Positions 1 through 45,207 of a stretch of 64,000 nt of DNA are shown piece after piece. A program made the translations under genes and the position numbers. Positions within the stretch are counted from its first letter, which is position 1. Each line of letters starts with the position of its first letter. The notes under the pieces are model-generated. The model saw only the letters and a program-made list of their open reading frames with translations, was not told the origin of the DNA and did not search any database. Origin of the DNA: an uncultured Actinomycetes bacterium (GTDB lineage Bacteria; Actinomycetota; CADDZG01; JAHWKV01); the NCBI GenBank assembly GCA_964501265.1, contig CAZCSK010000001.1:86314-150313 (forward strand), given 5' to 3'.

Positions 1-660
1 CACTGCGGCTTCAGCAAGGCGTGCCCAGGTTGTCGGTTCGCCGCCGCCGGCGAGGTGGATGACTCCCCTCTGTCCCTTGCCGATCAACTCGAGGATGCCA
101 TGTGCTAAGTCGACCGCGTACGTCGGGCGGCCCCACTGATCGTCGACAACATCGATTGACTCCCGGTCACGGGCCACCGCCAGGATCGAGCGGATGAAGT
201 TGCCCCCTTCGCCGAACATCCACGAAGTTCTAACGACTAGATGTTCAGCCGTCGCGGCCCTGCGTTCGCCCTCAAGTTTTGTACGGCCGTATACGTTCAA
301 CGGCCCCGTTTGGTCATCTTCGTTGTAAGGGCCTGACTTATCTCCGGAAAAGACATAGTCGGTCGAAATCTGAACCAACAAAGCCCCGTGACGCGCGCAA
401 GCCTCTGCCAGATTGCCGACGGCCTCAGAGTTCACCGCCGCCGCGGCGCCGGGATTGGCCTCGGCATCCTTGACGTTATAAACCGCAGCATTGATCACAA
501 CTTTTGGACTGTGTACGGCGACACTCTTCATCACGGCCACCGGATCGGTCACATCCAAACCAGCGTGATCCAGTACAAGGGCATCGGGGCGAAGGGCAGC
601 CAGCGCTTTGCCCAACTGTCCGCCGCCGCCGGTTACCAGGATTCGGGTATCGATGCCCAC
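1..660 (-). CDS. rmlD: dTDP-4-dehydrorhamnose reductase (RmlD), partial; C-terminus lies beyond window start
   Basis: Manual translation of the reverse strand from ~660 gives VGIDTRILVTGGGGQLGKALAALRPDALVLDHAGLDVTDPVAVMKSV..., the Rossmann N-terminus typical of RmlD. It overlaps the rmlC stop by ~28 nt. Not in the ORF track because its stop lies outside the window. Confidence 0.75.
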   Translation of the reverse strand, partial: MGIDTRILVTGGGGQLGKALAALRPDALVLDHAGLDVTDPVAVMKSVAVHSPKVVINAAVYNVKDAEANPGAAAAVNSEAVGNLAEACARHGALLVQISTDYVFSGDKSGPYNEDDQTGPLNVYGRTKLEGERRAATAEHLVVRTSWMFGEGGNFIRSILAVARDRESIDVVDDQWGRPTYAVDLAHGILELIGKGQRGVIHLAGGGEPTTWARLAEAAV

Positions 661-1211
661 TCGAGTTTGGAGTTTTCCTTGTCTCGGTCGGAAAGAATCG
701 GGCCGGAGATCTTCCAGGGACAGTCGAATGCGGGATCGTCCCATGCCACCCCGAACTCGTCGCTTGCGTCGTAGTAATCGGTCACCCAGTAGATGAGATC
801 CACATCCGTAACGGCAAGGAAACCATGAGCCACGCCCGGAGGGATATACAGGACTTGCGGTTCGCCGCCGACAAGGTCGATCGATACAACCGCTGGTTGG
901 TCCGTGCGGGTGCGAAGGTCGGCCAGCATCGCTTGGGCGTGGCCTCCAATGACGTACCAGAGGTCGGATTGATGGCGGTGCCAGTGAAGGCCGCGCAGCA
1001 CACCTGACGTGGATTTGGAATGATTGCTTTGCACGAACTTGACCCCGAGATTGCTCTCCCGCAAAATCTCCATGAAGGATCCTCGCTCGTCGGTGTGAAC
1101 GTCAGGGACGCCGATCAGGGCGCCGGGAATACCCGTAACTTCTTCGAACTTCATGCCGACTTCGAGTCGGTGTAAATAGACTCCGCTTCGGCTACGTGCG
1201 ATGCCCACCAA
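633..1211 (-). CDS. rmlC: dTDP-4-dehydrorhamnose 3,5-epimerase (RmlC, cupin fold)
   Basis: 192-aa ORF with a cupin-fold core (…RGLHWH…). Lies between rmlB and rmlD on the same strand. Confidence 0.85.
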   Translation of the reverse strand: MVGIARSRSGVYLHRLEVGMKFEEVTGIPGALIGVPDVHTDERGSFMEILRESNLGVKFVQSNHSKSTSGVLRGLHWHRHQSDLWYVIGGHAQAMLADLRTRTDQPAVVSIDLVGGEPQVLYIPPGVAHGFLAVTDVDLIYWVTDYYDASDEFGVAWDDPAFDCPWKISGPILSDRDKENSKLEWASIPESW

Positions 1212-2167
1212 TCGCGATTATTGCCATACCAGTCGACGGTTTTGCCGAGCTGTTCCCAGACGTCGCCTGGGCTCCAGCCAAGGGCGGTGATCTTTGAGGA
1301 GTCGACTGCGTAACGGCGATCGTGGTCGGGCCGATCGTAGGCAGTCATGGTGATGCGGTCGTCGCCCAAGTCGAGGTAACGCAAAAGCCAGCGGACCAGT
1401 TCGATGTTGGTGATTTCCGGATCGTGCATGGGGCCAACGTTGTACGCCTCGCCCGGCGTGCCCTGCTCTGCCAGGAGTCCGATCGCCCGGGCAAAGTCCT
1501 CGGCGAAAAGCCATTGCCTTATATAGAGGCCATCACCCCAAACCAGCAACGGGTCGTCGGTGAGCGCTCGCGCGATCCATCGCGGAAACGCCTTCTCGGG
1601 AAACTGCCAAGGGCCAAATGCGTTTGTGGGGCGGGCCACGACTACGGCCAGCCTGTCGGAGTGCGCAAGGGCAAGGTCGTCGCCCAATGCCTTCGATTGC
1701 GCATAAGGGCTGCTCGCCGCCCCCACGCCCGGCGGCTTATCGACCTCACGGAAGGCGCCTTCAAGGAGCGAACCGTAAACCTCGTCGGTGGAGATGTGTA
1801 CGAACTTCTCGACGCCGCTTGCAATGGATTCGGCGAGCATCGTGCGCGTGCCTTCAACGTTGGTGCGGTGGAATCTCTCAGGATTCGACTCGCTACGTGT
1901 CACGTGCGTCTCTGCGCCGTAGTGCACCACAACATCTGGTTTGTATTCGCGCATGGCCGCCTCGACATCCTCGGCCGAGGCAACATCGCCGCGCACAAAA
2001 GAGTAACGAGGATCGTCTTCAAGATCAGCGAGGCGAAGCCGGTCCCCCGCGTAGGTGAGCAGGTCGAAATTGACAACAGTCTTGGCCCCCGAAGCCAAAG
2101 CATGCCGGACAAAATGGCTACCCAAGAACCCGGCGCCGCCGGTGACGAGAATTCGGCTGCCGTTCAT
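1151..2167 (-). CDS. rmlB: dTDP-glucose 4,6-dehydratase (RmlB)
   Basis: ORF contains MNGSRILVTGGAGFLGSHFV… (GxxGxxG NAD site), a YxxxK region and extended-SDR dehydratase features. Start placed at ATG 2167 (MNGSRILVTG) rather than the ORF-track 2245. Confidence 0.85.
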   Translation of the reverse strand: MNGSRILVTGGAGFLGSHFVRHALASGAKTVVNFDLLTYAGDRLRLADLEDDPRYSFVRGDVASAEDVEAAMREYKPDVVVHYGAETHVTRSESNPERFHRTNVEGTRTMLAESIASGVEKFVHISTDEVYGSLLEGAFREVDKPPGVGAASSPYAQSKALGDDLALAHSDRLAVVVARPTNAFGPWQFPEKAFPRWIARALTDDPLLVWGDGLYIRQWLFAEDFARAIGLLAEQGTPGEAYNVGPMHDPEITNIELVRWLLRYLDLGDDRITMTAYDRPDHDRRYAVDSSKITALGWSPGDVWEQLGKTVDWYGNNRDWWASHVAEAESIYTDSKSA

Positions 2168-2316: not shown

Positions 2317-5300
2317 TCACGCCCACCTTAGCGTCGCCCACGGGGCGTACCCCCGCGAACCGGAGGGTGCACTCGCAACAGATTTCGGACACTTCCTCGT
2401 CCCGTTGGATGTCGATTTAGAACGGGGACGGCATGGGGCGTCGGTGATGGTGCCAATGCCCTCGGAATCGCTGATCGAGGCGTTCACAGCGGCGGCCAGG
2501 TGGACCTTAAAGGTCTCGTCATATTCAGAGGTCGTGTCGCTGTTGACGATCACAGTCACAGTCTGGGTCGTGGTGGTCGGCCCAAAGGTTAAGGTCCCCG
2601 ACGTCGCCTGATAGTCCGATCCGGCAGCGGCTGTCACGTCTTGGGTCGCGAAGGTGACCGTTGCGGTGACTTCGGTCGCTCCGGTCTTGGTGACGGTAAA
2701 GACCGCGGTGGTGGTGCCGGAGCTACCTTCGTTCACGGTAACGTCGTTGATGGCAAATGAGGGTTGGTCGTCGTCGTTGGTGATCGTTCCAACGCCTTGA
2801 GAGTCGGAAATCGTTGCATCGGTAGCTCCACTCAGGTTGACGAAGAAAGTCTCGCTAGGCTCGAAGGTGGCATCTGCGTTGACTGGGATGCTGACCGATT
2901 GAGTGGTTGTCCCAGGCGCGAAAGCGAGAGTGCCACTGGTGGATGCATAGTCCGCAGGCGACGTAGCGTCGGCGTCGGCCGTGGCGAAGTTCACGGTAAC
3001 CATTTGTCCGCTCGCAGTCGACAGCGCGACTGTGAAGGTCGCCGCCCCGGCACCCTCCTCGACCGTCACATCGTTGATCGAGATGGTCGGGCCAGGATCG
3101 TTGTCGGTGATCGTACCCACACCCTGGCCGGGCCCGCCGGCCGAGATCGTTGCGTTAGTTGGATTGGAGAGATTGACGATAAAGGTCTCATTTTCCTCGT
3201 CAAGACTGTCCTCGAGGATCGTAACGTCCACCGTAGTCGTTGTTTGCCCAGAGGCAAAGGTCGCCGTCCCGGTTGCCGCGGTGTAATCGAACCCTGCCGT
3301 CGCGGTCGCGTTCGCGGTGGCAAAATCCACCGTCGCCTCATCAGTCAGCGGCTGCGACAGCGAAAGGGTGAAGGTCGCCGTCCCGCTATCCTCGCCGACA
3401 GCGACATCCGTGATCGAGATCGAGGGCGGCGGCCCGACGATCACGGTCACCGTCGCGGTGTCCGTGCGACCCTCTGGAAGCTCTGAATCGGTGATCGTGT
3501 AGGTGAAGCTGTCGGTGCCGATGAAGTTCGAGTAGGGACTGTAAGTACAGACTCCAGCCTGGGTGCATGAGGCCGCGCCGTTGGCAGGCGGGGTAGAGGC
3601 GGTCACGGTGAAGGGATCCCCATCGGGGTCATAGTCGTTGTTCACTACGTTGATCGTGACCGGCTTGCCCTGGCGAGTGCCAGCCGAATCGTCCACGGCG
3701 TTGGGAGACCGGTTTGGAGCGGTTCTTGCGAACGGGAGTTCGCGCTGCGATTGAACGTCGTCCAGAAAACCTTCACCCTCAACCGTCGAGGGACATAGCC
3801 GGAGGGGCTTGAACTTCCACTGCTCGTACATTTCGAGCTGGTCGATGTAGTGGGCGGGATATGCGCTGTTCGCCTTCGGGTCCGAGGTGTCCGATTCATA
3901 TCTCAGCAAATCGGCCGCCGAGACGGGCGCGCCCTGGCCCGGGGGCAAGATCGAGAGGGCGTTGCAGGTTCCGATTTCAGATATGAAATTGTAAGAGGAA
4001 TGGTCGAAACCGTTCACATCCCGCACCGCGAGGGCCCCAAGAGCTCGGACCTCTATCGTGTTCACGGGTAGTTTGGGCAAGCTCGACAGATCCCCGGTCC
4101 CGGTCGGATCGAGGACATTCAATCCCTCGTCCAGGGCAGTCACTAACAACTCGTCCCAAGTTTCGACGGTCTCGGTAGTAGAGATGTTGTCGAAGTATTT
4201 GCGCGAGGGGGTGAGACCGGTGAAGGGCTCACGCGCGCGCGCGTGACGCAACCACCGCTCCAAGGGGGCTAGTTGCTCCTGCGACGTACCGATCGACGGC
4301 CGACCCGCCAACTCGTCGAATACGAGTGGATAGATGCGGTCCCAGACCGGTCCGGGTTTCAGCGTGCCCCCGTACACATCACTCGGCATGTCATCGGCAG
4401 CCCAGATGGCCAGCCCGGGCGCGTCGTAGAAACCGTCCCCGTTCCCGATCCCGTCCACGTCGACGCGAGCGAACCCGGACTCCGCCCAGTCGTGGAGTAG
4501 GCCCAGTGCTTCCTCCCGACGATCCTGAGCCGGAGTGGTCGGCGTGGAGCGCATCTCAACTGCCTCACTCATTGCGTCGACTAAGAATCCCACCAAAGGA
4601 TCGGTGTCGCAGCAAGCAAGACGGTTCACTACCTTCATTTCGGCGAAGCTCACAGTATCGAGTTCGTCGGCGTCGGCGAGAGACCGGACAATGTCTTCGG
4701 TGACGCCTCGGCGCTCCAACCGCCCAATACGCCATTCGTCTGAGGACGACCACCAACTAACCGGCTTTGAGTCCCATCCTTGATTCGCGACGAGAAACCC
4801 TTGGCTCGGGTTGCGAACGTGGGGATTGGGGATCAAACCCTCCTGCCACTCAAAATCGCTGGAGTGCCCTGGGGTGGGGAGTCGAAGGTCGAGTCCAGCG
4901 GCGTGGAGCTGATTGCGCCCCGAAAACCAGTAAGCGATGTTGCCTTCCGTGTCGGCGTACGGGATGTGAACGCTCCAGGAGGCCTCCTGGATCGCGTCGT
5001 TGGCCTCATCGATGGTTTGAGCCTCAGTTAGGTGGAAGAGACTGGCGAGGTTGTCGAGAACATGCCCTTCTTGCGCCCGCTTGCGAACGTACGCGACGTC
5101 ATTGTCTGGGTCGGTGCTGAAAACCGTTCCATGTAGTGATCGCTGGAATTCGCGCTCCTCAGTCGTGAACTCGGGCACCGTCGGACTGGTGGGATTGGTG
5201 TTGCGGACGAGGAATTGTTCCGTCCGACGCACGAAGGGCCGGGCATCATCATCGTATATGTAGAAGTTGTCAACGTCCGAGAGCTGCTCTATTACCACGT

Positions 5301-6393
5301 CGACTTGATCCCCGGCTGATCCGGCCACTATCGTCCACGCGTGGTGGCTGCACGTTCCATTTACGAGGAATGGCCCCGCCCCCGGAACTGCCGCGCCCGC
5401 GCAATCGATGCCCGGAGCATGCATCCCAACTTCCCACACGAGCGGCGGAGCGGCGATCCCAGACTGCGGTGCGCCAAGGAGCATGGCATTGCCGCTGGCC
5501 GATTGCGAGGGGCCTATTGCGACTCCATACGATCCAAGCTTGGGCAGCGCAGCATCGTCCATGACGCGCCCCAGCAATGCGTCCTGCGACTGGGTCATGG
5601 CCATCGGCAAGGGAAGATCCAAGAATGCGAGTTGAGAGGGGGGCGGAGTGCCGGGCGGCGACGTCAGAATGCTCGGCGCCGGCGGTGCATCGGAGTCAGG
5701 GATGACGGGCGTCGCGTCGGGGTCGTTGATCCAAAGCGTGTCGTCCCAAATACCATCGGCCTCGGCCGAAATGGCGCCGGCCTCGGCCGCGGGAAACCTG
5801 TCCTTCAGCTGGCCCAAGAACACTGCGTTCTCCAGCTCGCCGCCTCCGCCCCAGCCTCCATTATCGACACTTGTGAACAGCAGGGCGACGGCCGCAGAGT
5901 CGATCATGGTCCAAGGCTCGGGTTCGTAGCCGAGGGCCGCAAACTCCACGGGGCTTCGAGTGGGATCGGCGATAACCGCGGCCCACCCGGCGGTGATGCC
6001 GTTGGCGTAAGCATCCCAAAGTCCCCGCAGATCGGGATCCCAGTCGTCGATCTCGGCCTGGATGCGGCTCCTCTCGAAAAACTCCTGGCGCATGAGAATG
6101 TCCTCCTGGAGGAAGTCCCCCGTACCATCGTTATCCGCATCTTCGCCGGCCCCCAGAATCTCGGTCAGCCGCCCCTGGCCCGCCCGACGGTATACGTCTA
6201 ACTGAAAGGGCCGATCCTCAGCCAGCGAAAAACCCATGGCGTAGGCCAGGGCGTTCTGGGAAGGCGCGTCGATGTGCGGAACCCCGAAGGAGTCGCGGTA
6301 AACGGTGGCGAGTTCCGCCGGGGCTGCCAAGGTTGGCGATGGAAGCACAACAGTGATGAGCGTCAGCGCACAGAGAATCGCTGCCCCTCGCAC
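2317..6393 (-). CDS. Secreted penicillin-amidase-family (Ntn-hydrolase S45) protein with cadherin-like/VCBS-like segment and 4 C-terminal Calx-beta domains
   Basis: N-terminus has a signal peptide followed by VYRDSFGVPHIDAPSQNALAYAMGF…, the hallmark penicillin/AHL acylase motif. The C-terminal ~480 aa carry 4 repeats of …TFTVxLSxxSGQxVTVxFATAxxTATxxxDYxxxSGTLxFAPGTTTQxVxIxVxxDxxxExxETFFVNLSxATxATI…GxGTITxDD (Calx-beta-like), preceded by NNDYDPDGDPFTVTA…. Confidence 0.8.
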   Translation of the reverse strand: MRGAAILCALTLITVVLPSPTLAAPAELATVYRDSFGVPHIDAPSQNALAYAMGFSLAEDRPFQLDVYRRAGQGRLTEILGAGEDADNDGTGDFLQEDILMRQEFFERSRIQAEIDDWDPDLRGLWDAYANGITAGWAAVIADPTRSPVEFAALGYEPEPWTMIDSAAVALLFTSVDNGGWGGGGELENAVFLGQLKDRFPAAEAGAISAEADGIWDDTLWINDPDATPVIPDSDAPPAPSILTSPPGTPPPSQLAFLDLPLPMAMTQSQDALLGRVMDDAALPKLGSYGVAIGPSQSASGNAMLLGAPQSGIAAPPLVWEVGMHAPGIDCAGAAVPGAGPFLVNGTCSHHAWTIVAGSAGDQVDVVIEQLSDVDNFYIYDDDARPFVRRTEQFLVRNTNPTSPTVPEFTTEEREFQRSLHGTVFSTDPDNDVAYVRKRAQEGHVLDNLASLFHLTEAQTIDEANDAIQEASWSVHIPYADTEGNIAYWFSGRNQLHAAGLDLRLPTPGHSSDFEWQEGLIPNPHVRNPSQGFLVANQGWDSKPVSWWSSSDEWRIGRLERRGVTEDIVRSLADADELDTVSFAEMKVVNRLACCDTDPLVGFLVDAMSEAVEMRSTPTTPAQDRREEALGLLHDWAESGFARVDVDGIGNGDGFYDAPGLAIWAADDMPSDVYGGTLKPGPVWDRIYPLVFDELAGRPSIGTSQEQLAPLERWLRHARAREPFTGLTPSRKYFDNISTTETVETWDELLVTALDEGLNVLDPTGTGDLSSLPKLPVNTIEVRALGALAVRDVNGFDHSSYNFISEIGTCNALSILPPGQGAPVSAADLLRYESDTSDPKANSAYPAHYIDQLEMYEQWKFKPLRLCPSTVEGEGFLDDVQSQRELPFARTAPNRSPNAVDDSAGTRQGKPVTINVVNNDYDPDGDPFTVTASTPPANGAASCTQAGVCTYSPYSNFIGTDSFTYTITDSELPEGRTDTATVTVIVGPPPSISITDVAVGEDSGTATFTLSLSQPLTDEATVDFATANATATAGFDYTAATGTATFASGQTTTTVDVTILEDSLDEENETFIVNLSNPTNATISAGGPGQGVGTITDNDPGPTISINDVTVEEGAGAATFTVALSTASGQMVTVNFATADADATSPADYASTSGTLAFAPGTTTQSVSIPVNADATFEPSETFFVNLSGATDATISDSQGVGTITNDDDQPSFAINDVTVNEGSSGTTTAVFTVTKTGATEVTATVTFATQDVTAAAGSDYQATSGTLTFGPTTTTQTVTVIVNSDTTSEYDETFKVHLAAAVNASISDSEGIGTITDAPCRPRSKSTSNGTRKCPKSVASAPSGSRGYAPWATLRWA

Positions 6394-11729: not shown

Positions 11730-11738
11730 GGTTCACGG

Positions 11739-12527: not shown

Positions 12528-12570
12528 GCTGACCCTTCCAATAGGCGCTGTTTCGGTCCGAGACGTCTCG

Positions 12571-13731: not shown

Positions 13732-13732
13732 A

Positions 13733-34785: not shown

Positions 34786-35723
34786 CGTGACCGTTTCCCC
34801 ATCTCACTTGGATATTTCCCGTTGTTGAACTGAGCAAATCTCTCGCGTAAGGGCTCCCTCAACAGGCGGTCCATCTTTGCCGTTAACGATTCGCGCACCA
34901 TCCGGCGGCGGCACACAAAGAACGAATGCATGACGGGGACCACTCCTTCGAGAGTGAGTCGATCGTCCAGTGCTAGCAGATAAGCAAGAGCCTTGTTCGC
35001 CTCTTCGTCCTGCCTGGCGAACTCTTCTATGTTGTTCCAAAGTATCTGATAGCCGATGCCGCCGCCCAGATCTTTGCGTTCGACAAAGTCGAAGTAGTGC
35101 CCGATGGCGCGAAACAGTTCAGCAGAATGAACTGCCTCAGTTGGCTCCCAGGCCAGCAGGTGGCGAAGAGCGGGGCGAAGCGGGTGAGATGTTCTGAAAC
35201 GCTCGGGCAGCCCGGCATTCGCCTCTTCCATAGCAGCCGCGTGGCGATCGGAGTACTGATTCCGGCTGGGCCCAACATACTCCCAGTTAACAAAGAGCCC
35301 CTCGGGGGTCAAGCAGGTTGAGAGGACGCGAGTGATCCTGTAGAGGTACTGAGCATGGTGCAACGCCGCCACGTTCACTATTAGGTCGTAACTCTTGCGT
35401 GGGGAGAATGACCGAAAGTCCGACTTGAAGTAAGAGATGGGGCGATCCTTCCTAAGCTCTTTCGCCTCCTCTAGATAGGAGGGAGACACATCGAAGGCAT
35501 CGATGTGTGCTGCGATCCCTCGATCGATTAGATCGCGATCCACCCATCCATTCCCGCAGCCGATTACTAGTGCCTGATCGAGTGGCGGTGTTGCGTAACG
35601 CACCTTGAAGTAGTCCATCCACCAGACGTTGGAGTCGCCCGTGGCCTTACGACATAGATGGGCCAACACGCCCGGCAACTCATTCCAATACTTGTCGACA
35701 TAGTGGCTGAGGGCGTCAGCCAT
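34782..35723 (-). CDS. Class I SAM-dependent methyltransferase
   Basis: …ALVIGCGNGWVDRDL…AFDVSPSYLEEA…; ATGA overlap with the upstream gene. Confidence 0.65.
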   Translation of the reverse strand: MADALSHYVDKYWNELPGVLAHLCRKATGDSNVWWMDYFKVRYATPPLDQALVIGCGNGWVDRDLIDRGIAAHIDAFDVSPSYLEEAKELRKDRPISYFKSDFRSFSPRKSYDLIVNVAALHHAQYLYRITRVLSTCLTPEGLFVNWEYVGPSRNQYSDRHAAAMEEANAGLPERFRTSHPLRPALRHLLAWEPTEAVHSAELFRAIGHYFDFVERKDLGGGIGYQILWNNIEEFARQDEEANKALAYLLALDDRLTLEGVVPVMHSFFVCRRRMVRESLTAKMDRLLREPLRERFAQFNNGKYPSEMGKRSR

Positions 35724-35800
35724 CGAGGATTGCCAGAACTGGAACGAATGCCACCACCTTCATCCCTTTGTACACGGCTGCTGTCTCTTCCCGTAGGCCG
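35716..35800 (-). pseudogene. Remnant 5' end of a Dpm1-like GT2 gene (≈20 codons) retained within a duplicated promoter cassette
   Basis: The reverse strand encodes …REETAAVYKGMKVVAFVPVLAILDG*, parallel to the N-terminus (LREEILETA)VYKGLRVLAIVPVLDEQ of the intact GT2 at 28834..29556. The surrounding ~115 nt are ~80-85% identical to 29521-29635. The rest of ORF-track entry 35716..36045 has no GT2 continuity. Confidence 0.4.
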
Positions 35801-35802
35801 GG

Positions 35803-35829
35803 CCCGGTGAGCGGTAGATTGAGACCGTG
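35803..35829 (+). promoter_or_regulatory. Second copy of the TAGATT-N6-GTG leaderless-type promoter
   Basis: gcggTAGATTgagaccGTG. The flanking ~60 nt are conserved with 29560-29616. Confidence 0.4.
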
Positions 35830-37807: not shown

Positions 37808-38815
37808 ATGCGGCTCGTTTCTCGCCGCCTGATTGTGTCAATCGCAATTCTTGCCACGAGTACTGCATTGCTGTCGGTCGGCGCTCTAGTGGTGCGGCGG
37901 GGAGTCGTCAGAGAAGTAGCGCCCCCGGGAGAGCCCGCAACCGATATGCCTCCCGCAGTCGCCCAATCCCCCACACCCGAGTTTTCTCCTACCCCGGAGA
38001 GGCCCTCACACCTACTCTCCCCCCCGCAGGAAATCCCCACGTCCGCCACGTCCCCTCAGGACTACATTTGGAGCTTTCCGAAGTTGACCCTGAGCATAAA
38101 TGTAGATCCTGTAGAAGGGCCCACCTATGTCGGCCCCCAAGCACGAGGTGGATCGGGGTGTGCAAGGCTGATGGCCCAGACAAAGGGATCTGACATCACC
38201 GTTGAAGGTATGCGCTACCCACGCGATGCCATTTGCACGGCGGATACTCCGTTGCGCTGGGAGCCGATTGCAGTCAATGGCGCTGCGATGCAAATCACCA
38301 TTCGCTACCAGGGAGAAACTGGCGTATACGAGTTGAACCGGATTGAAGGTCGAGTGCGCTTGCTGCTTGCGCAGGGAATGGATGTCAGTCCGCCTGTGTG
38401 CCCGGCCTGGTGGGAGGTTCCCTCGGATATCTTAGCCGTCTCCGTCTGGAACAACGACGACCGCGCGGCCGCGACTGTAGAACGCGTCTCTGATCGCATC
38501 AGCTACCGGCTTCATGAGGAAGGCGGGTCCAAGCATGATCCACCACCCGGAAGAGCGATCGTCAAACGAGCAGGTGCCGACGACAACGGCGGTTGCGACG
38601 GCGAAGCTTCTGTCCTACCTGCGGCGTGGCGGGACCGGGAGGGGTTGTCCCGCAGCTTTCGCGTCTACCGCACTTCATCCGACGACAGCACACTCCAGCG
38701 AATCGCCGCGGAGGAGTCCAGTCGGGAGAAGGATTACTGCATAAACGTGAACATGAGCAGGCGATCCGAGTACATGGCGTCTCCAAAAATCCGGACCGAA
38801 GGCTGCCAGTATTGA
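37808..38815 (+). CDS. Hypothetical membrane-anchored/secreted protein (N-terminal TM, Pro-rich linker, Cys-containing domain)
   Basis: 335 aa; hydrophobic segment LIVSIAILATSTALLSVGALVV, then a P/S/T-rich linker. No family recognised. Confidence 0.45.
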   Translation: MRLVSRRLIVSIAILATSTALLSVGALVVRRGVVREVAPPGEPATDMPPAVAQSPTPEFSPTPERPSHLLSPPQEIPTSATSPQDYIWSFPKLTLSINVDPVEGPTYVGPQARGGSGCARLMAQTKGSDITVEGMRYPRDAICTADTPLRWEPIAVNGAAMQITIRYQGETGVYELNRIEGRVRLLLAQGMDVSPPVCPAWWEVPSDILAVSVWNNDDRAAATVERVSDRISYRLHEEGGSKHDPPPGRAIVKRAGADDNGGCDGEASVLPAAWRDREGLSRSFRVYRTSSDDSTLQRIAAEESSREKDYCINVNMSRRSEYMASPKIRTEGCQY

Positions 38816-38930: not shown

Positions 38931-40757
38931 ATGTTCAATAAGGCGAAATCTGTATTACTCGTCCTCGCGTCGATAGCCCTTGCGGCATCGATGCAATCGC
39001 CCTCGTACGCCGCCAACGGCACGCTCGTCGGCAGGGTCACCAACGTAGACACCGGCGGCGCCGTTTCGGGTGCGAGCATTTGGGCCGGCGTCGGACTTCC
39101 GACCGGTACAAGCAACTCAAGCGGCAACTACTCAATCAGTCTCCCAGCCAACAGCGGGTACAACGTGTTAGCCGACAAATCAGGTTACGCAGGAGCCCAC
39201 CAGTACGGGGTATCGATAATCGCAGGCTCGACTACCATCCTCGACTTCAGAATCACGACTCGGCAAGGCATCATCACCGGAAGGGTGATCGACGGCTCGG
39301 GATCACCAGTGCCAAGTCACGTTATTGCCGATTCCACAGAAGGCAACGGCTTCGGTAACGCGAACACGGACTCCAATGGTTACTTCACGATCAACCGTCT
39401 TGCCCCCATGACCTATTACATCCACGCCTTTCCAAACAACACCGCGTACGCACAGGTTGCTCAGGCAGGTGTGATCGTTTCAAACGGACAGACGACGAAC
39501 ACCACGGTGATCATCAACGGTGGAAGTACCGGGAAGATCGCCGGTCGCGTGACCTTCCCTGACGGAAGTGGACCTTCCAACGCAAGCATCTACATCGACA
39601 GCGGCCAGACATCGTCGGCTTGGGCGGGCAACACCGACGCATCGGGGAACTACACGAGCAGCTTCCTGCCGGCGGCCAAGTACAACGTCCATGTGTCGGA
39701 TGTCCCAGGATGGGCCAACCAGGTGAGATACGACGTACCTGTCAATGGCGGTCAGACCGCAGTGCTCAACATTCCTCTGGCCAACAACACCGGAAGCATT
39801 AGGGGCTGGATCACCGACATCAACGGCACCCCCATAGTGGGAGCGCAGGTCGATGCCTTCTCGTCGTCTAACACAGGCCCCTGGGGTTGGCAGACGGTGT
39901 TCTCCGCAGCGGACGGGTGGTACGACCTCAACCGTCTTCTTCCGAGCGACCGCTACCAGATCTGGGTGCACACCGCAGGGCGGCCGTCGCTGCACGCCGA
40001 TTTCATCACCCTGGCGGCCGGTCAGATCCGCCAGCCTTATAACTTCACGTTCACGTTCCCTGGAAAGGCAATCGCCGCCAACCCCAGCGGCGGCTATTAC
40101 CTGCTGAGCGGAACGGGCGAAGTGTACGCATATGGTGGCGCGAACTATTATGGATCACCCACATTCTCGTGGAATATCGCCCGCTCGATCGCGGTCATGC
40201 CTGATGGTCTCGGATACATCGTGCTCGACGGATACGGTGGTGTGCACAGGTTCGGCAGCGCCGCGTCCGGACCGATCTCGTCGCTTGTGAGTCCCTATTT
40301 CGGATGGGACATCGCGCGAGGTTTGGCGATCACCCCGTCAGGCGCTGGATTCGCGGTGCTCGACGGATACGGCGGCTATCACGCCCGAGGCAACGCTCCC
40401 ACCCCCCCGGTCAAACCCCCTTACTGGGGCGGTTGGGACATCGCAAGAGCCATCGCATTCAGCCCGAGTGGCGGGGGCTACTACATCCTCGATGGATATG
40501 GAGGAGTCCACGCCCGAGGGGACGCCGTCAGCCGCCAAGCGCCCTACTTCGGATGGGATATCGCGCGAGGTTTGGCGATCACGCCAACCAATGGGGGTTT
40601 TGCGATCCTCGACGGCTTCGGAGGGGTTCACATCGCTGGTGACGCAACCGTCGCAGGGCCCGGCGGTTATCTTGGGGCGGATCGGTGGCGTGGCCTGATC
40701 ATCCAAGGTGGCAAGTACCGTTTAGTTAGAAACGACGGATACGCAGCCCAGTTCTAA
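38931..40757 (+). CDS. Secreted protein with ~4 carboxypeptidase-regulatory-like (CarbopepD_reg / Big-like) domains and C-terminal 'LDGxGGxHP…DIAR' repeats (~5x)
   Basis: Signal peptide MFNKAKSVLLVLASIALAAS…; repeated G(R/W)(V/I)TdxxGxPVxGAxVxA…TDxxGxYxI units. C-terminal repeats, e.g. GYIVLDGYGGVHRFGSAASGPISSLVSPYFGWDIARGLAITP. Confidence 0.7.
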   Translation: MFNKAKSVLLVLASIALAASMQSPSYAANGTLVGRVTNVDTGGAVSGASIWAGVGLPTGTSNSSGNYSISLPANSGYNVLADKSGYAGAHQYGVSIIAGSTTILDFRITTRQGIITGRVIDGSGSPVPSHVIADSTEGNGFGNANTDSNGYFTINRLAPMTYYIHAFPNNTAYAQVAQAGVIVSNGQTTNTTVIINGGSTGKIAGRVTFPDGSGPSNASIYIDSGQTSSAWAGNTDASGNYTSSFLPAAKYNVHVSDVPGWANQVRYDVPVNGGQTAVLNIPLANNTGSIRGWITDINGTPIVGAQVDAFSSSNTGPWGWQTVFSAADGWYDLNRLLPSDRYQIWVHTAGRPSLHADFITLAAGQIRQPYNFTFTFPGKAIAANPSGGYYLLSGTGEVYAYGGANYYGSPTFSWNIARSIAVMPDGLGYIVLDGYGGVHRFGSAASGPISSLVSPYFGWDIARGLAITPSGAGFAVLDGYGGYHARGNAPTPPVKPPYWGGWDIARAIAFSPSGGGYYILDGYGGVHARGDAVSRQAPYFGWDIARGLAITPTNGGFAILDGFGGVHIAGDATVAGPGGYLGADRWRGLIIQGGKYRLVRNDGYAAQF

Positions 40758-40769: not shown

Positions 40770-42170
40770 CTATGCAACTGGGCAGGGGCCCGGAACAAAA
40801 TTCTGGTTAGGGGGGGGAGACTTCGGCGGGGTTGGCCCCGCCGGGTTGGCGGGAATTGATACTGGTTTGGCCCCGTCTGCCCCCACCACCAGAGCGATTG
40901 GCGTTTCGACAATCACGGCGGGGGGCATCGCTTTCACTGGCGCGCCATAGCGGGCAGCCACCAGTCGAGCCTTTTCATCATGGCCCGGCCCGAAATAAAC
41001 AGTTGTCGCGGCGTGAGGGCTCGCATCACCCGTTGCAACGACCTGATAACCCGCCGCCTTCAGAGCGTCCGCCACCTTGCGCGCCTCGCCATCGACGCGC
41101 GTTCCGTTCAGAACACTGATCTCAACATCTTCAGGTTCCAGCGTACTCACGCCGGTTCTGCCGTAATCGGGCAAAGCCTTTCGCTCTTTGATCGCGGCAA
41201 ATAGCGCGTCGGACTGTCTTTTGTTCGCGACAACGAAAGAGACTCCACCTATTCGCGCACCGCTGGATGGAACCGCTCGAAGATCGAGTTTGCTTGAGTC
41301 GAAGCCTCGAAGTCGGAGCGCCAGTGTCTTCATGTCGGATATCGCAAGATCAGCGTCCGTCTTTACGTTCTTCGAGAAAAGGTTAACGAGTTTCACGACC
41401 TTGATCGGGTTTAGCACTGTTCCCTTCCTCGTCAATTTTTCCATCATGAGTTTCACGAACAACTGCTGGCGGGCTATGCGGCCAAAGTCGCTGTCGATCT
41501 TGCGCACCCTCACAAACGCAAGCGCCTGATCGCCTTTGAGGCGCACGCAACCCTTGGGAACGTTGAGTCCGGAGTCTTTTTCGTTGATGGGTCTTTCAAA
41601 GAAAACATCGATGCCTCCCAGGGCATCGACGATGCTTCGAAATCCGGTGAAATCGACTTCGACGTAGTGATTCATTTCGAGCCCCGTGAAGCTTTCCACT
41701 GTTTTGACGACGGATCCTGCCCCGCCCTGGTATGCCCCGTTAATTTTTCCGGTCTTGCCGCCGGGCAGCGCTACTCTTAAGTCCCTTGGGAAGTGCACGA
41801 GCACTACCTCATCTCGCTTTTCGTCGACATGGACAAGGATGATCGTGTCGGCCCTGCGGCCGGTCTTGCGATCGGTCCCCTCCGGATCAAACTTCTTGAG
41901 TTCTTCTGGTGAAAGCCCTTCTCTGGAGTCGGAACCAACGATTAACACATTGAGCGGAGCCTTCGGCGCCTGACTGCTGAGTTCGGCTATGTCCTGCCTC
42001 TCGCCGCCAAGACGGATTACAACGTAGGCGAGGACGGCCCCGGCTATCAGACTCAGGATCAACACGAACATGAATGTATAGAAGGCAAGCCTGGCGCCTC
42101 GGGACCACCGATGTCGGCCGCGCCGGCCTCTCTCCTTGATTATTTGGTCCCAACCCGGGCTCATGGACAT
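40770..42170 (-). CDS. LytR-CpsA-Psr (LCP) family glycopolymer-to-cell-wall phosphotransferase
   Basis: N-terminal TM anchor, LCP core …LNVLIVGSDSREG…RADTIILVHVD…VLVHFPRDL…MNHYVEVDFTGF…, a C-terminal LytR_C-like domain and a Pro-rich tail. Confidence 0.8.
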   Translation of the reverse strand: MSMSPGWDQIIKERGRRGRHRWSRGARLAFYTFMFVLILSLIAGAVLAYVVIRLGGERQDIAELSSQAPKAPLNVLIVGSDSREGLSPEELKKFDPEGTDRKTGRRADTIILVHVDEKRDEVVLVHFPRDLRVALPGGKTGKINGAYQGGAGSVVKTVESFTGLEMNHYVEVDFTGFRSIVDALGGIDVFFERPINEKDSGLNVPKGCVRLKGDQALAFVRVRKIDSDFGRIARQQLFVKLMMEKLTRKGTVLNPIKVVKLVNLFSKNVKTDADLAISDMKTLALRLRGFDSSKLDLRAVPSSGARIGGVSFVVANKRQSDALFAAIKERKALPDYGRTGVSTLEPEDVEISVLNGTRVDGEARKVADALKAAGYQVVATGDASPHAATTVYFGPGHDEKARLVAARYGAPVKAMPPAVIVETPIALVVGADGAKPVSIPANPAGPTPPKSPPPNQNFVPGPCPVA

Positions 42171-42186
42171 AAGAGAAGTATCACCT

Positions 42187-43296
42187 TCAATCTCCCGCGA
42201 CGTCGCTGTAGACCTGACGAGTTAGGCGAGCCGTTTCCGCCCATGTATATAAGGAAGCCTGGGTGACTCCCAATTTGATTGCCCGGTCTCGAGCGTCATC
42301 GTCAGTAAGGACTCGCCGAATCGCATCGGCGATTGAGTCGGTATCGAGCGGATCGCACCAAATGGGGGCCTCTCCAAGCACTTCGACCAATGAACCAACG
42401 CTTGACGCGACCACTGGGATCCCGGCCGCCATAGCCTCCAGCGGTGGAAGCCCAAAACCCTCATATAAAGGGGCAAACACGAAGGCCCGGCAGCCTGCCA
42501 TAAGAGCGCCTAACTCAGCGTCTGGAAGATACCCCGAGAAAACAACTCGCGGATGAACCTTCAGCCTCCGAGTAAGAGCGCGCAAGTCGATGCTCCCCCA
42601 TCCTGGGGGACCCGCAATGACGAGGCTCACTTCCTCTTTAACCAGGCTGAGCGCCGTGACTAGCCTGTCAAGATTTTTCCTCGGTTCCTGCGTTCCCGCG
42701 AATAAGACATACGGACCATTTATGCCCAACCGATCGAGAACGGATTTGTCTGGTTGTGTGTTATTAAAGGCCCCCCTTACGCCTTCGGGCGTTACGACAA
42801 CGCGGTCAGATGGGACTCCTAGTTCGGCGACGACCTGGTCGCCGACTGTCCTGGACGGAGCAATGACCATTGCGCACCTTCTCAAAAAGCGCGGGACGAG
42901 CCACCTATAGCGCTGTACGTGTGGCGTGCACATCTCCGGATACAACCAGAAGGTCATGTCGTGAATCGTGATAACGCTGCGACTGCCTTTCACGGGGGGC
43001 ACCCAGAAATTGGTGCCATGAAATACGTCGATGGGTCCGATAAGCCTCTCCGCGTTCGGGGCACCCAACACTTCCCAAGCGGTGACGGCATAGCGCGCGG
43101 GGACCCTAAAGTGCCGCAGGGCAATCCTTGGATCGATAGGAACTTTCGACCTGTCCTCACCCATAGTAAGAGCGAGCAAGCGAAACTCCACCTGGGAGTC
43201 GATGGCCATCAACCCTTCCAACAGGTTCAGAGTGTAGTGACCCACCCCTGTCAGGGGGTTCAGCAACGGAGATACGTCGTAACCCACTCTCATCAC
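42187..43296 (-). CDS. GT4 (GT-B) glycosyltransferase
   Basis: MMRVGYDVSPLLNPLTGVGHYTLNLL… and a C-terminal E-x7-E-like region (…FAPLYEGFGLPPLEAMAAGIPVV…). Confidence 0.75.
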   Translation of the reverse strand: MMRVGYDVSPLLNPLTGVGHYTLNLLEGLMAIDSQVEFRLLALTMGEDRSKVPIDPRIALRHFRVPARYAVTAWEVLGAPNAERLIGPIDVFHGTNFWVPPVKGSRSVITIHDMTFWLYPEMCTPHVQRYRWLVPRFLRRCAMVIAPSRTVGDQVVAELGVPSDRVVVTPEGVRGAFNNTQPDKSVLDRLGINGPYVLFAGTQEPRKNLDRLVTALSLVKEEVSLVIAGPPGWGSIDLRALTRRLKVHPRVVFSGYLPDAELGALMAGCRAFVFAPLYEGFGLPPLEAMAAGIPVVASSVGSLVEVLGEAPIWCDPLDTDSIADAIRRVLTDDDARDRAIKLGVTQASLYTWAETARLTRQVYSDVAGD

Positions 43297-43315
43297 CGAT
43301 ATCCTGCCTTAGATA

Positions 43316-44428
43316 ATGCGTATCGGCGTCAATTTGATGTTTCTTGTTCCCGGTGAAGTCGGCGGAAGCGAACCGCTTCTGACGCGGCTTGTTGAATCTA
43401 TCTCCGACCTGGATCACGAATTAGTCGTCTTTGCCACCTCCGGTTTCGCGTCTGCTTACCCCCAAATCGCCGAGAGGACGCGAATCGTGCAGGTCCCCTG
43501 GAGTTCTGGCGCGCAGGGTTTGCGCATAGCCGCCGAAAACTCCTGGCTTGCGTGGAAGGCTCGGAGCCTAAAGCTCGATGTGATTCACCACGGCGTGGGC
43601 ACGACCCCGTTTTTCAAGACCATTCCCACCGTTGTGACCATTCACGACATCCAATACCTGCATCATCCGGAGAATTTTGTGAAGCTCAAACGCAAATGGC
43701 TTGAAATTAATGTTCCCCATTCGGCCCGGCGGTGTGAAGTAATTTGCGTTCCCAGCAACTGGGTAAAGCTGGACATCGTCCGCGCATTCGGAATCTCTGT
43801 TGACAAGGTGGCGGTCGTTCCCTTTGGAAGCGAGGGCCTCTTTGGAGTCGACGGTGGAGCGGGGGTTTCGAGCGTTACTGCGAAGTATCGCCTCGAACGA
43901 CCCTTCTTCTTGTTCCCCGGCAGGGCGTACCCCCACAAGAGTCATCGATTTCTTCTAGAGGCTTACAAACCTCTTGCCCCGTTCGCAGACCTCGTCTTCA
44001 CGGGTCCGCCGTGGTTTCGCGATAGGGAGATCGCCACGGCTGCCAGGGGGCTCGGGCTTTCCGGCAAAGTTCGGCATCTGGGCATCGTCTCCAGGGAGGA
44101 CCTCGGAGGGCTCTATCGCGCCGCCACTGCGCTTGTTTATCCAACGCGCTTTGAAGGCTTCGGACTACCTCTACTCGAAGCGATGTCCGTAGGCTGCTGC
44201 GTGATTGCATCCAACGTGACTTCGATTCCCGAAGTTGTTGCCGAAAGCGGCATTCTTCTTGAGCCAGACGATCTTGAAGGTTGGACCGAGACCATGGACA
44301 AGGTGCTGGGCGATGAGGCCCTACGGGCCGAACTTTCCTTGAGGGGTCTAAGGCGGGCGGCAGATTTCACCTGGGAGAACGCGGCGCGTCTTCAGGTGGC
44401 GGCCTACCAGCAGGCCAAGCGACCATGA
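43316..44428 (+). CDS. GT4 (GT-B) glycosyltransferase
   Basis: …FEGFGLPLLEAMSVGCCVIASNV… GT4 C-terminal motif. Divergent from the previous GT4. Confidence 0.75.
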   Translation: MRIGVNLMFLVPGEVGGSEPLLTRLVESISDLDHELVVFATSGFASAYPQIAERTRIVQVPWSSGAQGLRIAAENSWLAWKARSLKLDVIHHGVGTTPFFKTIPTVVTIHDIQYLHHPENFVKLKRKWLEINVPHSARRCEVICVPSNWVKLDIVRAFGISVDKVAVVPFGSEGLFGVDGGAGVSSVTAKYRLERPFFLFPGRAYPHKSHRFLLEAYKPLAPFADLVFTGPPWFRDREIATAARGLGLSGKVRHLGIVSREDLGGLYRAATALVYPTRFEGFGLPLLEAMSVGCCVIASNVTSIPEVVAESGILLEPDDLEGWTETMDKVLGDEALRAELSLRGLRRAADFTWENAARLQVAAYQQAKRP

Positions 44429-45207
44429 CGGCGCCCGTCGCCGTAGTCTTTGTCGCCACCAACGAAAACAACTTTCTGTTCGAAGCGCTTGAGTCACTCT
44501 TTGCTTCCACGACCTTGCATCCCGAAGTGGTGGTCGTTGACAACTGTTCAGACGAATCTCCCGCGCCAAAAATCGGCTCCCAGTGGCCGAGCGTAAAAGT
44601 ACTCTCGCGGGAGACCCGCTCCGGGCTCCCCTCAAACTTGAATTTTGGTTTCCGCGCGACGACGGCACCCTATGTGATGTTGTGCAATTGCGACCTCATC
44701 TTCAAGGCTCAATCGATCGAGATTCTCGCCCGTTTCCTGGGAGATAACCCGGGGGCCGGAGTGGCAGCCCCCAAATTGCTAGATCCGCAGGGGAAAAGGC
44801 GTGCCTCGGCCAGGCGCTGGTACACGTTTAGTTCGTTGATCGCCCTGCAGGGACCCTGGAGAAAGTTGTTCAAGAACAGCGTGCTCGTTCGACGGAGCCT
44901 GTACGAAGATTGGGACTACACTTCCGCCCGCCTGGTCGATTGGACGCCATTCTCAGCCACGATGGTGAGGAGGACCGCCTTCGAACAGGTCGGCCTAATG
45001 GACGAACGCTTTTGGGTCTACTTCGACGACGTCGACATCTGCCTTCGCATGCACAATGCAAGCTGGGAAGTGTGGTGCGTGCCGGACGCGGAAATAATTC
45101 ACCTGGAGCAACGATCGAGCAGCCGGCCCTTTTCACGCGCCTGGCGATGGCACCTTGCGTCGATGATCAAGTTCTGGCTGAAACATCGGAGCCTCACGCC
45201 TCGTTAG
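44425..45207 (+). CDS. GT2 family glycosyltransferase
   Basis: …VVVVDNCSDES… and …DDVDICLR… (DxD) motifs. ATGA overlap with the upstream GT4. Confidence 0.75.
   Translation: MTAPVAVVFVATNENNFLFEALESLFASTTLHPEVVVVDNCSDESPAPKIGSQWPSVKVLSRETRSGLPSNLNFGFRATTAPYVMLCNCDLIFKAQSIEILARFLGDNPGAGVAAPKLLDPQGKRRASARRWYTFSSLIALQGPWRKLFKNSVLVRRSLYEDWDYTSARLVDWTPFSATMVRRTAFEQVGLMDERFWVYFDDVDICLRMHNASWEVWCVPDAEIIHLEQRSSSRPFSRAWRWHLASMIKFWLKHRSLTPR

Follow-up and report, generated by a model that had tools for sequence, protein, structure and literature searches.

The 64,000-nucleotide (nt) stretch of contig CAZCSK010000001.1 analyzed here, hereafter the window, holds at positions 1-45207 what is, judged from its gene content, a genuine yet fairly ordinary cluster by which a surface polysaccharide would be built, exported and attached to the wall, in an Acidimicrobiia-like genome. 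The reading that we consider probable, if by no means certain, is that of a wall polysaccharide whose export depends on an ATP-binding cassette (ABC) transporter, which is probably end-capped, receives lipid-linked side-chain decoration and is attached by an LCP enzyme, in a single-membrane Acidimicrobiia-like actinobacterium. Every long open reading frame (ORF) was translated and scanned against Pfam and NCBIfam (49 ORFs in the window), with a six-frame reading for rmlD. The grouping of the genes goes beyond chance, because they form tight, often overlapping co-directional runs and because the core order recurs in 3 independent relatives. At the center of the cluster, positions 10842-24186 of the plus strand carry 9 co-directional genes that overlap or are separated by gaps of at most 43 nt, in the order GT2a, Wzm, Wzt (with Wzt_C), methyltransferase, GT2, GT4, GT4, SpoIID protein, and YfhO-like protein.

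The exporter encoded in this run supports an ABC-transporter-dependent export logic. The predicted Wzm permease (11739-12527, plus strand) matches the ABC-2 family PF01061, with the galactan export permease Wzm/RfbD as its best NCBIfam model, below cut-off. The Wzt ATPase (12475-13731, plus strand; likely start at 12571, 386 amino acids (aa)) matches PF00005 and carries a C-terminal carbohydrate-binding domain, Wzt_C (PF14524, E = 8e-27, 94.4 bits against a cut-off of 30.4), as the sequence-only reading of this DNA had proposed. Its best solved relative is the full-length Wzt of Aquifex aeolicus (8DKU/7K2T, E = 1.5e-76), with which it aligns from end to end, over residues 21-368, cap-binding domain included. 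The Aquifex domain binds 3-O-methyl-mannose or -rhamnose (Spellmon et al., PMC9445017) in a methyl pocket that consists of Leu300, Thr346, Ala348, and Trp362, while the sugar itself is contacted by Asn313 and His350 (PMC9445017). The pocket is kept in the window Wzt, where I294, T342, A344, W356, and N307 correspond to Aquifex L300, T346, A348, W362, and N313; the departures are His350 to Ser, His355 to Asp and a trap loop shorter by 2 residues.

A methyl cap at the non-reducing end is plausible mainly because of the position of a methyltransferase gene next to wzt. This gene, MT1 (13733-14590, plus strand; 285 aa, class I S-adenosylmethionine-dependent methyltransferase domains), starts one base after wzt and encodes a candidate chain-capping enzyme; a 49% identical homologue is likewise placed in the related locus L098, and is absent from the related loci L096 and L097. 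The earlier proposal of a capped, probably methylated chain end read by Wzt stands as regards the cap-binding domain, and its methylation part stays conditional. Methyltransferase domains number 3 in the interval (MT1, a GT2 fusion at 33259, and one at 34782) and not 4 as had been counted, the fourth (54719-55210) lying outside. In L096, a carbamoyltransferase (Carbam_trans_N/C; 9076-10806) is encoded just past YfhO, and may provide an alternative terminal modification.

Downstream of MT1, the run encodes the enzymes to which we would assign chain extension. The GT2 at 14587-15930 (plus strand; about 441-447 aa; PF00535, weak TIGR01556) is a conserved partner of Wzt, with 50-64% identity in L096, L097, and L098, and is a candidate rhamnosyltransferase or polymerase. 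It is followed by GT4_a (15927-17474, plus strand; PF00534), conserved in L096 to L098, and its paralogue GT4_b (17471-19093, plus strand; PF00534, paralogy by blastp), which are 50% identical to each other. Together with GT4_c (42187-43296) and GT4_d (43316-44428), Pfam finds the 4 GT4 enzymes previously counted, whereas at least 6 GT2 enzymes had been claimed and 5 are present, starting at 10842, 14587, 28834, 33259, and 44425.

Three related loci were recovered through the closest homologues of Wzt. L096 (Wzt 70% identical) has the order GT2a-Wzm-Wzt-GT2-GT4-YfhO, followed by the carbamoyltransferase. L097 (Wzt 62%) has a gene for a CAP-propeller protein just upstream of wzm, then Wzm-Wzt-GT2-GT4-YfhO and, after YfhO, a propeller amidase (56% identical, in both halves), a propeller CarboxypepD_reg protein (61%), rmlC, and an rmlA-like nucleotidyltransferase. 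L098 (Wzt 56%) begins with YfhO, a GT2-methyltransferase fusion, CAP, SpoIID and amidase proteins and a methyltransferase, and continues with Wzm-Wzt-MT1 (49%)-GT2-GT4, a further methyltransferase, and rmlD, B, C, and A. A core of Wzm-Wzt-(methyltransferase)-GT2-GT4-YfhO, accompanied by rml genes and hydrolases, is thus found across 3 Acidimicrobiia loci. Because this combination is found again in L096 to L098, the exporter, the GT2/GT4 core, YfhO, rml and the secreted hydrolases are, as far as gene order tells, a recurring Acidimicrobiia locus type and not a chance assembly. Recurrence of the same hydrolase types at these homologous loci also supports a link between the polymer locus and the secreted proteins, which had been called cognate.

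The host is, by the origin of its closest homologues, an uncultured Acidimicrobiia-like actinobacterium of a single-membrane lineage, since both the YfhO relatives and the named homologues of Wzt and of the propeller repeat come from Acidimicrobiia or other Actinomycetota. The nearest species-representative genomes with a YfhO-like relative in a GTDB search are Acidimicrobiia metagenome-assembled genomes (MAGs; 35-47% identity), and the named Wzt and repeat homologues derive from Acidimicrobiia, Acidimicrobiales, Acidimicrobiaceae, and Actinomycetota MAGs. Most of the cluster proteins are singletons at 90% identity. A horizontally acquired genomic island was considered and rejected: G+C content at third codon positions (GC3; 0.61-0.74) is alike inside and outside the interval, codon usage matches the flanks, and the borders carry neither a tRNA gene nor an integrase gene, so that the composition is native and shows nothing foreign.

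Extracytoplasmic decoration from polyprenyl-phosphate (polyprenyl-P) sugars, as had been proposed, is supported because GT2 genes resembling polyprenyl-P-sugar synthases adjoin genes for GT-C-type membrane proteins and because one such pair is syntenic elsewhere. There are 3 such pairs (GT2 at 10842 with GT-C at 21829, 28834 with 29614, and 33259 with 31268), in each of which the GT2 gene shares an operon with the GT-C gene or is divergent from it; the synthase assignments follow the best family matches, all of which are below curated cut-offs. The first pair consists of GT2a (10842-11729, plus strand; Logan gene call from 11001; sub-threshold matches to AglJ, ArnC, PpgS, and PgfS), which opens the 9-gene operon, and the YfhO-like protein (21808-24186, also given from 21829, plus strand), a putative GT-C glycosyltransferase with 12 predicted transmembrane (TM) helices, weak PgfM1/2 similarity and a PF09586 match restricted to the C-terminal ~60 residues. 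Homologues of GT2a (51-77% identical) adjoin YfhO-like genes in L003, L004, and L096, the pair is also kept in L007, and it recurs in Acidimicrobiia and Solirubrobacteraceae genomes. The second pair joins GT2b (28834-29556, minus strand; AglJ, PpgS and DPhHxTase matches) to a divergently encoded PMT_2-like polytopic protein (29614-31239, plus strand), a GT-C candidate with ~9 TM helices and 24.2 bits to PF13231 against a cut-off of 26.1. The third pair is formed by a GT2 (PgfS/ArnC-like) fused to a methyltransferase (33259-34785, minus strand; Pfam and NCBIfam matches, 2 predicted C-terminal TM helices) and a 682-aa membrane protein (31268-33316, minus strand); a similar fusion of 484 aa adjoins YfhO in L098 (720-2174), and the fused enzyme might produce a methylated lipid-linked sugar donor. 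Side-chain addition outside the membrane by such multi-component systems has been reviewed (PMC8035078, PMC9574508).

Four GT-C-type membrane proteins had been claimed and are retained, on unequal evidence: one is confirmed by a structure model, and the other 3 are assigned by weaker, partial or sub-threshold sequence matches. For the 682-aa protein, an AlphaFold2 (AF2) model built with an alignment of its own family (HMMER search; predicted local distance difference test (pLDDT) 92.3) had as its top 14 Foldseek PDB matches GT-C enzymes without exception (AftD, AglB, STT3, PglB, AftA, and AftB). Its family is very rare, a search of 1.84 billion proteins having yielded 112 representatives (E<=1e-3), and some members weakly match PTPS_related and YfhO; conserved residues include D57, Y95-P96-P97-G98, and R176. 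The fourth protein, of 587 aa (35827-37590, plus strand; ~10 TM helices; PTPS_related, E = 0.007), is a probable GT-C enzyme, since hhalign pairs it (E = 8e-5) with the catalytic module at the N terminus of the 682-aa family. Searched by sequence, neither the 682-aa nor the 587-aa protein had a match in PDB or Pfam, and a k-mer search gave a single homologue of the 682-aa protein.

The precursor genes point to 2 sugars. For rhamnose, the left edge of the window encodes on the minus strand a putative dTDP-glucose 4,6-dehydratase, rmlB (1151-2245; TIGR01181 at 313 bits against a curated cut-off of 365, E = 2.5e-93), a dTDP-4-dehydrorhamnose 3,5-epimerase, rmlC (633-1211; PF00908, E = 9e-37; TIGR01221 at 109 bits, below cut-off), and the N-terminal part of a dTDP-4-dehydrorhamnose reductase, rmlD (1 to ~640, running off the window; reverse-frame translation ILVTGGGGQLGKAL...STDYVFSGDK). 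Of the rmlBCD set previously named, rmlB and rmlC are therefore confirmed and rmlD is partial. No rmlA was found in the window by the Pfam and NCBIfam scans; in L098, rmlA comes after rmlC. The residues of the rmlC product that match the epimerase domain also match PF14667 (Polysacc_synt_C, E = 9.6e-15), an odd coincidence that looks like a quirk of the Pfam model.

The second sugar is suggested by a minus-strand operon with the order GT2b, oxidoreductase, aminotransferase, acetyltransferase, and amidase, in which a 3-dehydrogenase, a 3-aminotransferase and a 3-N-acetyltransferase form a biosynthetic trio. These are a GFO/IDH/MocA oxidoreductase and probable UDP-GlcNAc 3-dehydrogenase (27788-28810; best NCBIfam NF040723, the archaeal UDP-GlcNAc 3-dehydrogenase, 167 bits, sub-threshold), a DegT/DnrJ/EryC1 sugar aminotransferase (26681-27787; PF01041, E = 4e-106) and a 3-amino-sugar N-acetyltransferase of the WlbB/QdtC class (26106-26684; WxcM-like PDB 4MZU, 4.8e-48; WlbB 3MQG, 4e-43). 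That the trio would make a diacetamido sugar agrees with the sequence-only reading, which had called it WbpB/E/D-like; rather than acting on a uronic acid as those enzymes do, it looks GnnA/GnnB/WlbB-like, acting on UDP-GlcNAc. WbpB/WlbA was not among the PDB matches of the oxidoreductase at 1e-10 or better. The likely product is UDP-2,3-diacetamido-2,3-dideoxyglucose (UDP-GlcNAc3NAc) rather than a mannuronic acid, because the dehydrogenase is nearer to UDP-GlcNAc 3-dehydrogenases and neither the WbpA (UDP-GlcNAc 6-dehydrogenase) nor the WbpI (2-epimerase) family was detected in the window. The operon starts with the PpgS/AglJ-like GT2b and faces a GT-C gene, an arrangement under which the diacetamido sugar would be delivered as a lipid-linked side group.

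Wall attachment is supported by an LCP gene inside the cluster (40770-42170, minus strand). Its product, a putative glycopolymer-peptidoglycan ligase, exceeds the TIGR00350 cut-off (142.8 bits against 62.3), matches PF03816 (E = 1e-43) and carries the actinobacterial LytR_C domain (PF13399), in line with the LCP transferase and the wall linkage that had been predicted. It is co-oriented with GT4_c (42187-43296, minus strand; Pfam); GT4_c-like genes adjoin those for propeller proteins in 15 of the 79 metagenome loci described below. LCP and GT4_c are followed on the plus strand by GT4_d (43316-44428; Pfam), 95% identical in a close relative, L016, and first gene of the conserved right flank, and by GT2_260 (44425-45207; 260 aa, PF00535, weakly rhamnosyltransferase-like with 52.5 bits to TIGR01556, sub-threshold) at the right end of the cluster.

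Four secreted proteins encoded in the cluster share a C-terminal module made of a ~43-aa repeat, GYVLDGYGGlHPFG...YW.GWDIAR, which was detected by all-against-all comparison and is not recognized by any Pfam model (repeat spans 6477-7262, minus; 20391-21848, plus; 24173-24940, minus; and 40053-40733, plus). They are a 1421-aa protein with 4 Calx-beta domains (6474-10739, minus strand; repeats at aa ~1160-1421; Pfam and repeat similarity), a SpoIID/LytB-domain protein (19134-21878, plus strand; TIGR02669 at 189 bits against 83.3) with ~11 repeats (aa ~420-905), encoded between GT4_b and YfhO with gaps of at most 40 nt, an N-acetylmuramoyl-L-alanine amidase (Amidase_2, PF01510; 24170-26059, minus strand) and a protein with 4 CarboxypepD_reg domains (38931-40757, plus strand; module at aa ~375-601). 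In the amidase, the 6 copies fold as a six-bladed propeller (aa 374-629; AF2 pLDDT 94.5). Remodeling roles had been assigned to several of these proteins, and the SpoIID/LytB protein and the amidase bear this out; the CarboxypepD_reg domain is non-catalytic and the fourth protein, which has no catalytic domain, is therefore not an enzyme. No sortase signals were found on the secreted proteins. A fold search for a specific functional relative of the propeller returned generic six-bladed propellers alone (YWTD, the mycobacterial PknD sensor, and fucose lectins).

The module occurs in at least 932 metagenomic proteins, the named sources of which are Acidimicrobiia or Actinomycetota, and its partners elsewhere are CHAP, Amidase_2, M23, CAP, TIG, and GH18 domains, a pattern typical of modules that target the wall. 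Of 79 propeller-bearing metagenome loci (689 kb), 7 include a complete Wzt, binding domain present, and another a Wzm fragment; a many-copy acyl-CoA dehydrogenase family, taken for comparison, gave 1 match, and fewer than 1 Wzt would be expected in 689 kb if a ~3-Mb genome has at most 3 transporters, a figure which is our estimate and not a measured control. Propeller proteins are encoded beside Wzm/Wzt, methyltransferase and GT4 genes in 2 of 5 long-contig contexts (L010 and L015). In L098 (2445-8319; NCBI GCA_041166745.1), the SpoIID, Amidase_2 and CAP orthologues end in a different ~43-aa repeat, GVFRNGTWYLRNSNSNGPPD...GDWNGDG, which is FG-GAP-like; there, the catalytic domains appear to have been kept and the C-terminal targeting module swapped. 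Taken together, the hydrolase partners, the co-occurrence with Wzt and the apparent module swap in L098 suggest a role of the module in docking exoproteins to the wall, where it may bind the polymer of its own locus. The fuller version of this idea, that the undescribed propeller is an Acidimicrobiia wall-targeting module by which autolysins (SpoIID, amidase, CHAP, and M23) and further exoproteins are docked onto the glycopolymer that Wzm/Wzt exports, and which co-varies with the polymer type, is one that we put forward tentatively and rate somewhat below even.

In the proposed pathway, a transferase whose gene lies elsewhere would begin the glycan on polyprenyl phosphate, and GT2 (14587) and the GT4 enzymes (15927 and 17471) would lengthen it in the cytoplasm, with dTDP-rhamnose from the rmlBCD products among the donors. 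Its non-reducing end would be modified, probably through O-methylation by the methyltransferase encoded just after wzt. The finished chain would then be recognized, through a presumed ligand, by the C-terminal domain that Wzt carries, and exported by Wzm/Wzt. Outside the membrane, the 3 polyprenyl-P-sugar synthase/GT-C pairs, discernible as pairs and by fold, would add side groups from presumed substrates, one of them probably 2,3-diacetamido-2,3-dideoxyglucose from the adjacent operon, and the LCP protein, a clear member of its family, would transfer the polymer to peptidoglycan as its presumed acceptor. The SpoIID, amidase, Calx-beta and CarboxypepD_reg proteins would most likely be held at the wall by their propellers, plausibly by binding this polymer.

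Several observations weigh against this reading. The pocket residues of Wzt are kept in 18 of the 19 other aligned Acidimicrobiia Wzt proteins, including those of L096 and L097, which have no adjacent methyltransferase; being equally conserved there, they do not discriminate as a test for a methyl cap and, as a family trait, are no proof of one. The best solved relative of MT1 is an uncharacterized archaeal methyltransferase, not WbdD or WsaE, and the candidate role of a terminator of the WbdD/WsaE type found no such similarity. No glycosyltransferase reaches a curated equivalog cut-off, which makes donor and acceptor sugars guesses. Nor is the pathway closed within the window: an initiating phosphoglycosyltransferase of the WecA/WbaP type (no PF00953 or PF02397 match in the 49 window ORFs) may be encoded elsewhere, rmlA is missing from the window, and so is any detected GtrA or Wzx family flippase for the lipid-linked sugars, the intergenic space being too small for a missed gene. 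With WbpA/WbpI absent as well and the left edge cut, the earlier description of the cluster as self-contained and covering every stage does not hold; in streptococcal rhamnose loci, too, the initiating TagO/WecA-type enzyme is encoded outside the locus (PMC9574508, PMC8035078), and mycobacteria likewise encode theirs elsewhere. In none of the 79 metagenome loci does LCP adjoin Wzm/Wzt, and in L016 it sits with rml genes and no Wzm/Wzt is visible, so that the LCP and Wzm/Wzt modules may be separable. Among the long-contig propeller contexts, 2 of 5 have no nearby glycan genes, and several propeller genes are far from glycan genes. LCP enzymes are also able to glycosylate proteins, as Actinomyces LcpA does, and the GT-C fold neighbors of the 682-aa protein in Foldseek include oligosaccharyltransferases.

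A possible separability of the modules is the basis for an alternative that we regard as unlikely, though as the most probable of the rivals, namely that the interval is a mosaic of at least 2 separable systems sharing a variable chromosomal site and not one pathway. The parts would be a frame of rml, LCP, GT4_c/d and GT2_260, the Wzm/Wzt operon, and independent GT2/GT-C modules, acting perhaps on lipoglycans, other polymers or proteins. In its favor, the flank genes of L016 are 92-98% identical to those of the window, and its rmlB and rmlC lie ~0.7 kb from the LCP gene, the 38.5-kb interior being missing; it is precisely at the divergent junction of GT4_c and GT4_d, 19 nt long, that identity to L016 declines to 62-71% (window 40875-43316 against L016 2344-4779). 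Because rmlCB almost adjoin LCP in L016, the 38.5 kb that separate rmlB from the LCP gene in the window behave as an interior that varies between strains, set in a conserved frame of rml, LCP, and GT4/GT2, a structure that our preferred reading includes as well. The interval comprises at least 8 transcription units of alternating orientation, synteny with those GTDB genomes that encode a YfhO-like protein is limited to the GT2a/YfhO pair, no LCP is near Wzt in the 79 metagenome loci, and GT2/GT-C modules are known as portable decoration systems (PMC8035078). Conversely, L097 and L098 again group rml, Wzm/Wzt, GT2/GT4, YfhO and the same secreted proteins, the L016 contig stops at rmlC, so that its Wzm/Wzt block may lie on the other side, and the modules of the window are tightly packed with no unrelated genes between them.

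Protein glycosylation, in which a GT-C enzyme or LCP would transfer the chain exported by Wzm/Wzt, or else the polyprenyl-P sugars, onto the co-encoded Calx-beta/propeller proteins, as S-layer or secreted glycoproteins, and not onto peptidoglycan, seems to us distinctly improbable. The layout resembles that of Geobacillus and Paenibacillus S-layer clusters, with wzm-wzt, a methyltransferase, rhamnosyltransferases, rml and a target gene nearby (PMC2943079), the fold neighbors of the 682-aa protein include AglB, STT3 and PglB, a PMT_2-like protein is present, and the locus includes genes for large secreted proteins with repeats. However, Pfam scans of the window found no O-oligosaccharyltransferase of the Wzy_C/O-antigen-ligase type (PF04932, WsaB/WsfB-like), in place of which the cluster encodes an LCP ligase; the secreted proteins encoded among these genes are hydrolases of peptidoglycan, and module partners such as CHAP, M23 and amidase indicate wall targeting and not an S-layer lattice, while Foldseek rank within GT-C assigns no acceptor. 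We find it hardly credible that the product is an exopolysaccharide released from the cell or a glycan anchored to lipid in the manner of an O antigen. Although O-antigen export is the setting in which Wzm/Wzt with a cap-binding domain is most familiar (PMC9445017) and source annotations name the homologues "lipopolysaccharide transport system ATP-binding protein", components of the WaaL, Lpt, Wza/Wzc or KpsD/E type were not found in the window, the bacterium belongs to the Actinomycetota and the cluster includes an LCP with LytR_C.

An LCP-attached wall polysaccharide, our preferred reading, would follow rules already established in streptococci and mycobacteria, with an exporter of the cap-reading O-antigen type. 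Like the rgp/gac/cwps/epa loci of streptococci, lactococci, and enterococci, the cluster as we read it combines rml genes, assembly on polyprenol in the cytoplasm, ABC export, side chains added outside by a GT2 synthase and a GT-C enzyme, LCP ligation and an initiating enzyme outside the locus (PMC9574508, PMC8035078). Unlike them, it belongs to another phylum, has a bona fide Wzt_C domain on Wzt followed by a methyltransferase, lacks RgpA/B/F-type rhamnosyltransferases at curated threshold and a GtrA/Wzx flippase, encodes its LCP, with actinobacterial LytR_C, inside the cluster and embeds 4 secreted propeller-tagged proteins. With O-antigen export in Escherichia coli O8/O9a and Aquifex, it shares the nucleotide-binding domain (NBD) and C-terminal jelly-roll domain of Wzt, the methyl-pocket residues, an adjacent methyltransferase gene and rhamnose precursor genes, the Aquifex O antigen being a methyl-capped rhamnan/mannan (PMC9445017). 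It differs in that there is no outer membrane or lipopolysaccharide and the acceptor, reached through LCP, would probably be peptidoglycan instead of the lipid A-core to which WaaL transfers; H350, H355 and the trap loop are also not the same, and the methyltransferase is a plain 285-aa protein and not a WbdD-like kinase-methyltransferase ruler.

The composition had been described as unlike that of arabinogalactan loci, but the architecture is the same as that of arabinogalactan and of streptococcal rhamnose polysaccharides. The mycobacterial system is likewise actinobacterial; its galactan exporter subunits are the best family match of Wzm and the third-best of Wzt, below cut-offs, and it shares GT-C elaboration from polyprenyl-P sugars (fold neighbors AftD, AftA, and AftB), a PpgS-like synthase and an LCP with LytR_C. 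In Mycobacterium tuberculosis, the gene order is wbbL1-rmlD-lcp1, which the rml genes and GT2 adjoining LCP in L016 recall. By contrast, the window has no GlfT1/GlfT2, decaprenyl-phosphoryl-arabinose (DPA) pathway, Emb proteins, or mycolate genes, and mycobacterial Wzt has no cap-binding domain, the solved chains of ~260 aa matching the NBD alone. In Clostridioides difficile, the PSII locus adjoins the cwp genes for CWB2-anchored proteins, and PSII is exported by an MviN-type flippase, whereas export here would proceed through Wzm/Wzt. The present module, a six-bladed propeller of ~43-aa repeats with no Pfam family, is not CWB2, and its polymer binding is a candidate property. The likeness lies in a glycopolymer locus with LCP ligases and in wall proteins, including amidases, that share a polymer-binding repeat module (PMC4973711, PMC5065235). 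The slg clusters of Geobacillus stearothermophilus and Paenibacillus alvei resemble the window in their Gram-positive Wzm/Wzt with a predicted cap reader, rml genes, methylation as chain terminator and overlapping wzm-wzt-transferase genes (PMC2943079); in the window, LCP takes the place of a Wzy_C oligosaccharyltransferase of the WsaB type, and the cluster encodes neither an initiating enzyme of the WsaP type nor an S-layer protein.

Each element is known, then, and it is the lineage and the particular combination that are new; the propeller module is the sole element that could prove genuinely new. The locus offers a concrete blueprint for a rhamnose-containing, probably end-capped polymer with cap-reading ABC export, decoration from lipid-linked sugars and fixation by LCP, and indicates that Wzm/Wzt export of the cap-dependent kind, familiar above all from O antigens, would be widespread in single-membrane Acidimicrobiia. 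These bacteria are common in soils, sediments and waters, and a narrow literature search for their cell envelope gave ecological surveys only and no describing paper. If the docking idea is true, the locus is a matched cassette of a polymer and polymer-binding proteins in a class with an essentially unstudied envelope, a known parallel being choline-binding proteins with teichoic acid. A module that binds the polymer would be a new wall-anchoring domain and a handle for labeling or lysing uncultured Acidimicrobiia.

The remaining features complete the layout. Coordinate 1 is the edge of the window and not of the cluster, as the rml operon runs past it; upstream of rmlB, in the same orientation, are the genes for a giant secreted penicillin-amidase/Calx-beta protein and for the 1421-aa Calx-beta protein. 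The former (2317-6393, minus strand; 1358 aa, signal peptide) belongs to the penicillin-amidase family of Ntn hydrolases, with Big_9/cadherin-like and 3 Calx-beta domains (Pfam), and has no propeller module. Beyond the amino-sugar operon and the PMT_2-like gene, a further minus-strand run encodes a 109-aa ORF, the methyltransferase MT3 (34782-35723; PF08241, PF13649), the GT2-methyltransferase fusion and the 682-aa protein, and is followed on the plus strand by the 587-aa protein, a 335-aa secreted or anchored protein (37808-38815; N-terminal TM helix and proline-rich linker, no Pfam or NCBIfam match) and the CarboxypepD_reg protein. The 109-aa ORF (35716-36045, minus strand) has no detectable family; since it overlaps the start predicted for the 587-aa gene, one of the 2 calls is probably wrong. 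Past 45.2 kb come fatty-acid and central metabolism genes. Behind the former, 18.6 kb past the cluster and unrelated to it in position, lies the L,D-transpeptidase that had been counted as nearby, of which the window includes the C-terminal part (~63780-64000, minus strand; motif HS...SAGCVR) before the gene is cut by the right edge. At 54719-55893 (plus strand), the small methyltransferase overlaps a 231-aa sugar-phosphate nucleotidyltransferase (best matches mannose-1-P guanylyltransferase and MurU); the pair is kept in L016 and belongs to the housekeeping flank, not to the cluster.

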